Assembly: GCF_053078305.1 (NCBI RefSeq)
Contig: NZ_CP166877.1
Strand: one strand, 5' to 3'
From: a plasmid
Length of the DNA: 7,047 nucleotides
The notes under the pieces were generated by a model. That model was not told the origin of the DNA and searched no databases. It was given only the letters and a program-made list of their open reading frames with translations. Made by a program: the position numbers and the translations under genes. Positions 1 through 7,047 of this stretch are shown here, in pieces; the first letter of the stretch is position 1, and every line of letters starts with the position of its first letter.

Positions 1-1599
1 ATGATAGTTAAGTTTCATGCCAGGGGAAAAGGCGGTGGCAGTGGTCCGGTTGATTACCTGCTGGGCCGGGAGCGTAACCGGGAAGGGGCGAGAGTTCTGC
101 GGGGTGCTCCCGAAGAGGTGCGGGAACTCATCGATGCCACGCCGTTTGCGAAAAAATACACCTCGGGGGTTCTGTCTTTTGCAGAGCAGACCCTGCCACC
201 GGGAGAGCGTGAAAGGGTGATGGAGAGCTTTGAGCGGGTACTGATGCCCGGTCTTGAAAAAAATCAGTACAGCATCCTGTGGGTGGAGCACCAGGACAAG
301 GGGCGTCTTGAGCTGAATTTTGTCATCCCGAATATGGAGCTGGCGAGCGGAAAACGGCTCCAGCCCTATTACGACCGGGCGGACCGTCCGCGAATCAATG
401 CCTGGCAGACACTGGTGAATCACCATTACGGGCTGCACGACCCGAACGCACCGGAGAACAGGCGGACACTTGTCACCCCGAATAATCTGCCGAAAGCGAA
501 ACAGGAGGCCGCAGAAGCGATTACGAGGGGACTGGAGGCTCTTTACCATGCCGGAGCGCTAAAAACGCGTCAGGATGTCACTGAGGCGCTTACAGCGGCA
601 GGTTTTGAGGTGGTGAGGACAACCAGGAGCAGTATCAGTATCGCCGACCCGGAGGGCGGGCGTAATCTCAGGCTGAAAGGGGCGCTGTATGAGCAATCTT
701 TTACAAATGGGGACAGACTTCGAGAAGAAACTGAAAGAGCGTGCCGTCTCTACAGAGAACATGCTGAACAGCGAGTTCAGGAAGCTCGAAGCGTCTGTAG
801 ACAGGGAACTGAACTTAAACGGGCAGAAAATCAGAGACGCTATCAGCGCACACACAGCAGCGGTGAAAGAACAACTGGAGACGCTGAACAGTGCCGTGAA
901 CGCGCAGTTCAGCGCCACAGAGAACGAACTGGCCCGGCGGCAGGAAGAGCTGCTCTGGAAGCTGATCAAAGGGCGGATACTGTACCCGTCGCTGACGGCG
1001 CTTTGCGTCACGGGCGGGATTTTTCTGGCGTCATGGGGGCTGATTCAGTGGCAGGAAAGCCGTATTGCGGCGAACATCCTGGCTATCAGGGACCAGGAAG
1101 AGACGCTGGCGAAACTCCGGGAAAAAACATGGGGTGTGACGTATCACGAGGGCAGGAACGGGAAATTTCTGGTGCTGCCGTCCGGGGTGAAGGGGGAAAA
1201 CAACTGGACGGTGGAGAAGAAGAACGCAGTAAGACTGGTCAGGGAGTAAGTGAGTATGACAGAGCTGGAAATGCACTTACTGAACGCCTTAGAGCAATTG
1301 CAGCAGGACTATACGCAGCGGCTGAAAGACTGGGAGAGCGCCTTCACGGATTTGCAGCATATGTTCGAGCTGACACGACAGGAGAACGGGCAACTGAGGG
1401 AACAGTGCGACGACTTGAGTCAGCAGGTGCAGAGATTAGCCGGGCAGGTGGACCGCTTGAGTCGGTTATTTATCACGAACAGCAGATAAGGGATGAACAG
1501 GAAAGGCAGGCACGCCTGGAACGGGAGCGTGCGCGGTCCTGGCATGAAGAGCAGGAACGGGAAGTACGGGTATGGCGTGGCCCGTCAATGGGGATGTGA
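1..1599 (+). CDS. mbeA: Mobilization relaxase MbeA (MobA-like, HEN-type relaxase of ColE1-family plasmids)
   Basis: 532-aa ORF starting at base 1. The N-terminus MIVKFHARGKGGGSGPVDYLLGRE matches the ColE1 MbeA N-terminus as I recall it, including the catalytic Tyr in VDYLLG. A His/Glu/Asn motif (WVEHQDKGRLELNFV) fits the HEN relaxase signature. The C-terminal third is low-complexity Arg/Glu-rich and hosts the nested mbeB/mbeD frames. Confidence 0.9.
   Translation: MIVKFHARGKGGGSGPVDYLLGRERNREGARVLRGAPEEVRELIDATPFAKKYTSGVLSFAEQTLPPGERERVMESFERVLMPGLEKNQYSILWVEHQDKGRLELNFVIPNMELASGKRLQPYYDRADRPRINAWQTLVNHHYGLHDPNAPENRRTLVTPNNLPKAKQEAAEAITRGLEALYHAGALKTRQDVTEALTAAGFEVVRTTRSSISIADPEGGRNLRLKGALYEQSFTNGDRLREETERACRLYREHAEQRVQEARSVCRQGTELKRAENQRRYQRTHSSGERTTGDAEQCRERAVQRHRERTGPAAGRAALEADQRADTVPVADGALRHGRDFSGVMGADSVAGKPYCGEHPGYQGPGRDAGETPGKNMGCDVSRGQEREISGAAVRGEGGKQLDGGEEERSKTGQGVSEYDRAGNALTERLRAIAAGLYAAAERLGERLHGFAAYVRADTTGERATEGTVRRLESAGAEISRAGGPLESVIYHEQQIRDEQERQARLERERARSWHEEQEREVRVWRGPSMGM
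689..1249 (+). CDS. mbeB: Mobilization protein MbeB, nested inside mbeA in the +2 frame
   Basis: 186-aa ORF wholly inside mbeA in another frame, which is the classic ColE1 mob arrangement. ATG start is preceded by AAGGGG about 8 nt upstream. The product has a hydrophobic segment (LTALCVTGGIFLASWGLI) consistent with a membrane-associated accessory protein. Confidence 0.75.
   Translation: MSNLLQMGTDFEKKLKERAVSTENMLNSEFRKLEASVDRELNLNGQKIRDAISAHTAAVKEQLETLNSAVNAQFSATENELARRQEELLWKLIKGRILYPSLTALCVTGGIFLASWGLIQWQESRIAANILAIRDQEETLAKLREKTWGVTYHEGRNGKFLVLPSGVKGENNWTVEKKNAVRLVRE
1256..1489 (+). CDS. mbeD: Mobilization protein MbeD (reported entry-exclusion role in ColE1), nested in the mbeA 3' region
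   Basis: Same +2 frame as mbeB, directly after the mbeB stop (TAA 1247-1249). The ORF track starts it at GTG 1250, but ATG 1256 has the better Shine-Dalgarno spacing (GGGAG 1242-1246, 9-nt spacer), so the start is placed at 1256 (alternative 1250). Product is a 77-79 aa coiled-coil-like protein (MTELEMHLLNALEQLQQDYTQRL...). Confidence 0.7.
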   Translation: MTELEMHLLNALEQLQQDYTQRLKDWESAFTDLQHMFELTRQENGQLREQCDDLSQQVQRLAGQVDRLSRLFITNSR

Positions 1600-5415: not shown

Positions 5416-5441
5416 AAAGGATCTCTTGAGATCCTTTTTTT
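5416..5441 (+). terminator. Rho-independent terminator-like hairpin plus T-run at the end of the colicin operon
   Basis: AAAGGATCTC-TT-GAGATCCTTT inverted repeat followed by TTTTTTT, 9 nt after the lysis gene stop. The same motif occurs at the equivalent place in pMB1/pBR322. It overlaps the RNAII promoter -35. Confidence 0.5.
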
Positions 5442-5454: not shown

Positions 5455-5467
5455 GCTGCCTGTAAAC

Positions 5468-5573
5468 GAAAAAACCCGCCTTGTGGCGGGTTCTTCCGTC
5501 CGATCAGAAGTCTTCGACCTCTTCTAATCGGCGGTGGTAACTGGCTATCGCAGAGCACAGGTACCTAAATTGT
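5468..5573 (-). ncRNA. RNAI antisense copy-number control RNA
   Basis: The reverse complement reads ACAAUUUAGGUACCUGUGCUCUGCGAUAGCCAGUUACC..CCGAUUAGAAGAGGUCGAAGACUUCUGAUCGG..AACCCGCCACAAGGCGGGUUUUUU. This gives three stem-loops and a terminal hairpin plus U-run, homologous in layout to pMB1 RNAI but with different stem and loop sequences. Confidence 0.8.
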
Positions 5574-6039: not shown

Positions 6040-6100
6040 GGGGCGGAGCCTATGGAAAAAGCGCCTCCGGCGCGGCCTTTTCCGGGGTTTTTGTTTTTTG
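6040..6100 (+). other. oriV: RNAII/DNA transition region of the ColE1-type origin
   Basis: GGGGGGCGGAGCCTATGGAAAAAGCGCC...GGCCTTTTCCGG is homologous to the pMB1 region containing the RNase H processing and DNA-synthesis start site. The exact switch point is not determinable from sequence alone. Confidence 0.5.
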
Positions 6101-6475: not shown

Positions 6476-6667
6476 TCAGAGGTTTTCACCGTCATCCCCG
6501 AAGCGTGCGAGGCAGCTGCGGTAAAGCTCGTCGGCGTGGTCGTGAAGCGCTTCGCAGATGTCAGCCTGGTCGTCGGCGTCCAGTTCATTCAGTTTTTCCA
6601 GCAGGGTCAGCGTCTGGCTTCTGATGAAGCGGGCCATGTTAAGGGCGGTTTTTTCCTGTTTAGTCAC
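6476..6667 (-). CDS. rop: Rop/Rom (RNA one modulator; RNAI-RNAII kissing-complex stabiliser)
   Basis: 63 codons ending ...TKQEKTALNMARFIRSQTLTLLEKLNELDADDQADICEALHDHADELYRSCLARFGDDGENL, near-identical to ColE1/pBR322 Rop. The start appears to be GTG (RC of 6665-6667) at the position of the ATG in pBR322. The ORF-track entry 6476..6907 is an artefactual N-terminal extension. Confidence 0.9.
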   Translation of the reverse strand: MTKQEKTALNMARFIRSQTLTLLEKLNELDADDQADICEALHDHADELYRSCLARFGDDGENL

Positions 6668-6710
6668 AGTTCTGTTTCTCCATGTGTGGGGAGTCTGTCG
6701 GAGGTTTTTA

Positions 6711-7047
6711 ATGATACCGGTGAAACGCGAAAGAATGCTCACGATACGGGTCACGGATGAGGAACATGCGCGGCTGCTGGCACGTTGTGAGGGAAAACAA
6801 CTTGCGTCATGGATGCGTAAGGTCTGCCTGGGGGCACCGCCATCGAAAACGTCAGGCCTTCCGACACTGGCACCGCCGCTGTTGCGCCAGTTCGCTTCGG
6901 TCGGCAATAACCTGAATCAGATAGCCCGGAAGATAAACAGCGGACAGTGGTCGGGGCATGACCGGGTTCATGTGGTGGCTGCACTGATGGCCATCGGGCG
7001 TGAACTGAGTGAGCTGAGGGATGAGGTCCGTAAACAGGGAGAACGGG
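6711..7047 (+). CDS. mbeC: Mobilization protein MbeC (oriT-binding accessory protein), 3'-truncated by the window end
   Basis: Manual translation from ATG 6711 (GGAGG 6700-6704, 6-nt spacer) gives MIPVKRERMLTIRVTDEEHARLLARCEGKQLASWMRKVCLGAPPSKTSGLPTLAPPLLRQFASVGNNLNQIARKINSGQWSGHDRVHVVAALMAIGRELSELRDEVRKQGER... with no stop before the window end. It resembles ColE1 MbeC as recalled (..LAPPLLRQ...GNNLNQ.ARK.NSGQW...). An alternative start is ATG 6735 (MLTIRV...). Confidence 0.8.
   Translation, partial: MIPVKRERMLTIRVTDEEHARLLARCEGKQLASWMRKVCLGAPPSKTSGLPTLAPPLLRQFASVGNNLNQIARKINSGQWSGHDRVHVVAALMAIGRELSELRDEVRKQGER

Follow-up and report, generated by a model that had tools for sequence, protein, structure and literature searches.

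Rop (or Rom) is a homodimeric four-helix bundle that stabilises the kissing complex formed by RNAI and RNAII; in this way the inhibition of primer maturation is strengthened and plasmid copy number is lowered (PMC8683028). In pMB1/pBR322 and in ColE1 the rop gene is located between the mob genes/oriT and the replication origin, and the plasmid described below shows the same disposition. With respect to start codons, about 14% of the genes of E. coli begin with GTG, which yields an N-terminal Met and supports initiation at a level that is 10-100% of that of AUG (bioRxiv 10.1101/063800). A search of a paper collection for an explicit statement on the GTG/GUG start of rop, or on a swap of its start codon, found none.

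The colicin K plasmid

The window, that is, the whole stretch of 7,047 bases that was analysed, is an entire circular colicin K plasmid of the ColE1 type, linearised at mbeA. It contains cka, cki, a lysis gene, mbeA/B/D, exc2, mobC, rop and the RNAI/RNAII replicon. NZ_CP046541.1, an E. coli plasmid of 7,047 bp, matches it end to end with 99.3% identity, and many ColK plasmids of 6,988 bp match it at 95% identity. These colicin K plasmids, together with pColK-K235 (NC_006881.1), are 95-99% identical to the window over the whole plasmid, share its rop leader and GTG, and carry the same Rop or nearly so. The features outside rop that are relevant here are the following:

1-1599, plus strand: mbeA, 532 aa
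689-1249, plus strand: mbeB, 186 aa, in another frame inside mbeA
1250-1489, plus strand: mbeD, 79 aa, in another frame inside mbeA
5466..5572, minus strand: RNAI antisense RNA gene (Rfam RF00106)
about 6050-6065, plus strand: origin region motif CTATGGAAAAAGCGCC, from the sequence
6340-6326: bom/nic-like motif GTGTATACTGGCTTA, between rop and the origin, from the sequence
6735..7047, continuing to 1-11 across the circular junction, plus strand: mobC, translated on the circularised window as MLTIRVTDEEHARLL...GERDDS and a stop

The nesting of mbeB and mbeD within mbeA in other frames is also found in ColE1. In the PLSDB table of the nearest relative, MbeB and MbeD are listed and the relaxase CDS is absent. 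The mobC gene ends in a stop codon that shares bases with the ATG of mbeA at position 1, and the annotation of NZ_CP046541.1 has MobC at the corresponding place. This gene is divergent from rop, the intergenic region being of 67 nt, so that the promoter of each must be near or within the other gene. A consensus scan upstream of rop showed no sigma-70-like promoter. An open reading frame of 143 aa that begins with TTG at 6907 was rejected as a mechanical artefact, since it is an open frame antisense to mobC.

The RNAI gene matches the Rfam model RF00106 over its full length (1-102) with 53.4 bits (gathering score 47, E=6.6e-08). The minus-strand position of RNAI places RNAII on the plus strand, where it extends as far as the origin motif. 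By analogy with ColE1/pBR322, CTATGGAAAAAGCGCC would be the site of the RNAII primer-to-DNA transition. Measured downstream from the 3' end of RNAI, the motif is at about 590 nt; the rop stop is about 410-425 nt away from it, a distance that we take to match the rop-to-ori spacing of pBR322. The motif GTGTATACTGGCTTA is presumably nic-like, an assignment that we made from the bom site of ColE1/pBR322. Transcription of rop goes from higher to lower coordinates, hence in the direction of the origin, and converges on RNAII. The window thus shows the canonical ColE1 layout, with rop on the downstream side of the origin, oriT/bom in the interval, and rop and RNAII transcribed toward each other, in agreement with the first-pass annotation of this DNA, which had described the arrangement as the standard one. 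Just upstream of RNAI/RNAII, at 5416-5437, there is a perfect hairpin with a 9-bp stem, AAAGGATCTCTTGAGATCCTTT, followed by a T-run, which was flagged as terminator-like on both strands.

The rop gene and its product

The elements of the rop locus are:

6476..6667, minus strand: rop (rom), 63 codons plus TGA stop (translation, 1ROP, Pfam and RefSeq match)
6665..6667, minus strand: rop initiation codon GTG, read directly from the sequence
6678..6681, minus strand: Shine-Dalgarno (SD)-like GGAG, 10 nt upstream of the GTG, from sequence and alignment, with a putative function
6660..6683, minus strand: out-of-frame upstream mini-ORF of 7 codons, ATGGAGAAACAGAACTGTGACTAA (MEKQNCD and a stop), from the sequence
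6635..6637, minus strand: internal in-frame ATG, codon 11 of rop, an unlikely start

Translation of the minus strand from 6667 to 6476 gives VTKQEKTALNMARFIRSQTLTLLEKLNELDADDQADICEALHDHADELYRSCLARFGDDGENL and a stop, from the GTG at 6667..6665 to the TGA at 6478..6476; the 5' codons are GTG ACT AAA CAG GAA AAA ACC GCC CTT AAC ATG. This protein is identical to the crystallised Rop (PDB 1ROP) in 61/63 residues (E=1.5e-37), and two substitutions, E33D and S40A, set it apart from the Rop/Rom of pMB1/pBR322 and ColE1. The Pfam profile Rop (PF01815) is covered in its full length (1-57/57) with 125.2 bits, above the curated cutoff of 25, and an NCBIfam search gave no match for Rop. As is typical of Rop/Rom, a protein of about 60 residues (63 codons here) is encoded beside a ColE1-type RNAI/RNAII replicon. 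The RefSeq protein WP_000165980.1 of NZ_CP046541.1 is identical to that of the window, with the same boundaries and a GTG start. The locus is therefore a textbook ColE1-type rop, and the feature is real and was correctly placed and oriented.

Given the 97% identity, the Rop of the window would be expected to act as the characterised protein does. The GTG at 6667..6665 would be read as Met by the initiator tRNA, with the use of the GGAG located 10 nt upstream, and the 63-residue product would form the four-helix-bundle homodimer. This dimer would bind and stabilise the RNAI-RNAII kissing complex, which would lead to a stronger inhibition of primer formation and to a lower copy number.

The start codon of rop in other plasmids

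The codon at 6667..6665 is indeed GTG, as the first-pass annotation had stated. The same annotation had also assumed that the codon aligned with it in the rop of pBR322 is ATG, and this premise was mistaken: the rop genes of pBR322 and ColE1 start with GTG too. The reference records compared were ColE1 (NC_001371.1) and two plasmids with the pBR322 backbone, pOF39 (in which tet(C), TEM-1 and rop occupy positions similar to those in pBR322) and pET3xa (pET3xa-barn36). A GTG start of rop was found in ColE1 (position 790), pOF39 (position 1907), pET3xa (position 1482) and NZ_CP046541.1. In the first three plasmids the annotated rop CDS of 192 nt opens with GTG followed by AC(T/C)AAACAGG and is preceded by ...CACGGAGGCATCA. 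In the window, as in the rest of the GTG-initiated rop group (the ColE1/pMB1/ColK lineage), the GTG is aligned with residue 1 of Rop.

The start codon was also surveyed in one genome per GTDB species and in a metagenome collection, by means of a degenerate DNA pattern for codons 3-12 that was the back-translation of KQEKTALNMA; the start was read two codons upstream of each match. GTG was found at 111 of 145 sites and ATG at 34, a ratio that is descriptive and not an unbiased frequency, because nothing but synonymous variants of KQEKTALNMA can match the pattern and some of the pBR322-type matches, in odd hosts such as Bacillus, Corynebacterium and Bradyrhizobium, are surely vector contamination. 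The ATG starts belong to a close variant of 63 aa that has a different leader (AAGGAGCC...) and to more divergent, Klebsiella-type proteins of 59 aa. Among the complete copies of 63 codons with a leader of the ColE1/pMB1 type (78 copies), the ColK type (28) or the GACCA class (6), all 112 begin with GTG. Among these 112 copies there are 55 different CDS haplotypes; 52 sites vary, and codon 1 contains none of these. Selection for GTG was considered as a reading of this invariance and rejected, a single site being too little for it; one invariant site is unremarkable, since 35/63 third positions vary. The restriction of codons 2-10 to synonymous variation was likewise rejected as evidence of coding constraint, because the survey pattern admitted nothing else.

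Homologues with 52-65% identity, found independently by tblastn and used in place of that variation as evidence, each have a start codon exactly at the position aligned with the GTG of the window. Yersinia pPCP1, pEC886, E. albertii pEA5_3 and an Enterobacter plasmid have GTG there, whereas in Arsenophonus, Edwardsiella and Klebsiella the codon is ATG. All of these homologues conserve residues 2-10 of Rop. The divergent Rop subfamilies (the pPCP1 type, the 59-aa proteins of Klebsiella, and those of Edwardsiella and Arsenophonus) share 52-65% of protein identity with the Rop of the window and several are ATG-initiated, but the position of the N-terminus is the same and the motif xKQxxxALNMAxFI is conserved. 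The Yersinia pPCP1 type has, like the window, a GTG start, with a GGAG about 11 nt upstream.

From these comparisons, GTG is the standard start of rop in the ColE1/pMB1(pBR322)/ColK lineage and not a peculiarity of the window plasmid. It is already known, annotated and widespread, so the finding in itself matters very little. A mildly useful by-product is the descriptive survey, in which Rop genes use GTG and ATG across lineages.

Copies of rop of the pBR322 or ColK type were also present in assemblies assigned to Terrisporobacter, Bradyrhizobium, Corynebacterium, Pseudomonas, Bacillus, Psychromicrobium, Micromonospora, Staphylococcus and others (GTDB contigs L006, L009, L013 and L015; PLSDB entries H57-H65). 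The presence of rop in such odd hosts is most likely due to contamination with cloning vectors or E. coli plasmids, or to engineered constructs.

The site of translation initiation

Protein-level conservation of Rop starts at the GTG codon, and the sequence upstream diverges between leader classes with the exception of the aligned GGAG. Upstream of this codon no in-frame ATG was found, and the in-frame GTG/TTG codons are 25, 29 and 80 codons away (the nearest GTGs being those at 25 and 29), antisense within mobC and devoid of an SD. The PDB chains of wild-type Rop begin with MTKQEK, and the Pfam Rop model likewise begins at residue 1. We infer that the N-terminus actually used in the window plasmid is the GTG-initiated one.

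The next in-frame ATG is located ten codons further in, at codon 11 (6637..6635), as the first-pass annotation had indicated, and initiation there would give a protein of 53 residues. In favour of this idea, ATG is generally the stronger start codon and the truncated Rop still reaches 97.8 bits with the Pfam model. However, the only SD-like element that could serve this ATG is an AGGA situated about 15 nt upstream (predicted -4.3 kcal/mol), and the product would lose the N-terminus (positions 1-10 of PF01815), a loss also foreseen in that annotation. The conservation of residues 2-10 down to about 52% identity, the alignment of homologue starts with the GTG, and the start at residue 1 in the Pfam model as well as in the PDB chains also argue against it. 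Residues of helix 1, among them Lys3 and Asn10, reportedly contribute to RNA binding, which would weigh in the same direction. Initiation at codon 11 is thus very improbable.

Still less credence can be given to the possibility that the GTG is an ATG misread in sequencing or assembly. No supporting points for such an error were found, and the identical leader with GTG is present at the 28 sites of the ColK type, most of which come from independent contigs, as well as in NZ_CP046541.1 and pColK-K235. The reading that we favour, and consider very probable, is that of an ordinary rop (rom) in which translation proceeds from the GTG at 6667..6665 by means of the GGAG, giving the 63-residue Rop, with GTG as the norm of the lineage.

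In pColK-K235, which is an old record, no rop CDS is listed at the rop region (about positions 794-985). Relative to the window, this sequence has a gap of 1 nt, with which the rop frame is lost after ...DADDQADI; the gap reflects either an error of the early sequencing or a genuine pseudogene.

The rop leader and the expression of Rop

The real difference from ColE1/pBR322 is found in the leader and not in the start codon. In the alignment, the GGAG of the window (6681..6678) is the counterpart of the GGAG(G) of ColE1/pBR322, where the spacer is shorter by 5 nt; upstream of the SD the two sequences have diverged. According to a crude energy calculation, the GGAG of the window, with its 10-nt spacer, would form a duplex of -6.4 kcal/mol with the anti-SD, against -9.5 kcal/mol for the GGAGG with 5-nt spacer of the ColE1/pBR322 leader. 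A spacer of 10 nt between SD and start is present in leaders of the ColK (window 6668-6681), GACCA, AAGGAGCC and pPCP1 types, and one of 5 nt in ColE1 (positions 776-789). Since the 5 nt are kept by ColK, GACCA, AAGGAGCC and pPCP1 and are missing in ColE1/pMB1, the long spacer is the commoner state.

The ColK-type leader also contains a small CUCC/GGAG hairpin and the mini-ORF. The latter overlaps the rop SD with its ATG and rop codons 2-3 with its stop. No SD pairing is predicted upstream of this mini-ORF (6683..6660; +0.4 kcal/mol), and MEKQNCD is probably not translated.

The first-pass annotation had suggested that GTG, as a weaker start, could lower Rop levels and raise copy number with respect to pBR322. 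This suggestion did not survive the comparison, because the start codon is the same in ColE1, pOF39 and pET3xa and cannot cause a difference from them; the GTG is no ground for expecting less Rop, or a copy number higher than that of pBR322. A broader version of the proposal is that this plasmid has less Rop than pBR322/ColE1, owing to the GTG by itself or in combination with the longer SD spacer, and hence a higher copy number. GTG does generally initiate less well than ATG (10-100% of AUG; bioRxiv 10.1101/063800), and the leaders differ in SD, spacer and predicted pairing energy as described above. However, besides the identical start codon of ColE1 and the pBR322-type plasmids, the 10-nt spacer is present in four other leader classes, one of them ATG-initiated, and looks like the common state, and the SD energies are crude predictions. 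This explanation is therefore unlikely.

With its weaker GGAG, 10-nt spacer, hairpin and mini-ORF, the ColK-type leader could set a rate of Rop translation different from that of the ColE1/pMB1 leader. It is conceivable, although improbable, that variation of the leader, and not of the start codon, acts as a natural copy-number knob among ColE1-like plasmids. The shortened SD-to-start spacer of ColE1/pMB1 is possibly relevant to the engineering of copy number through Rop expression.
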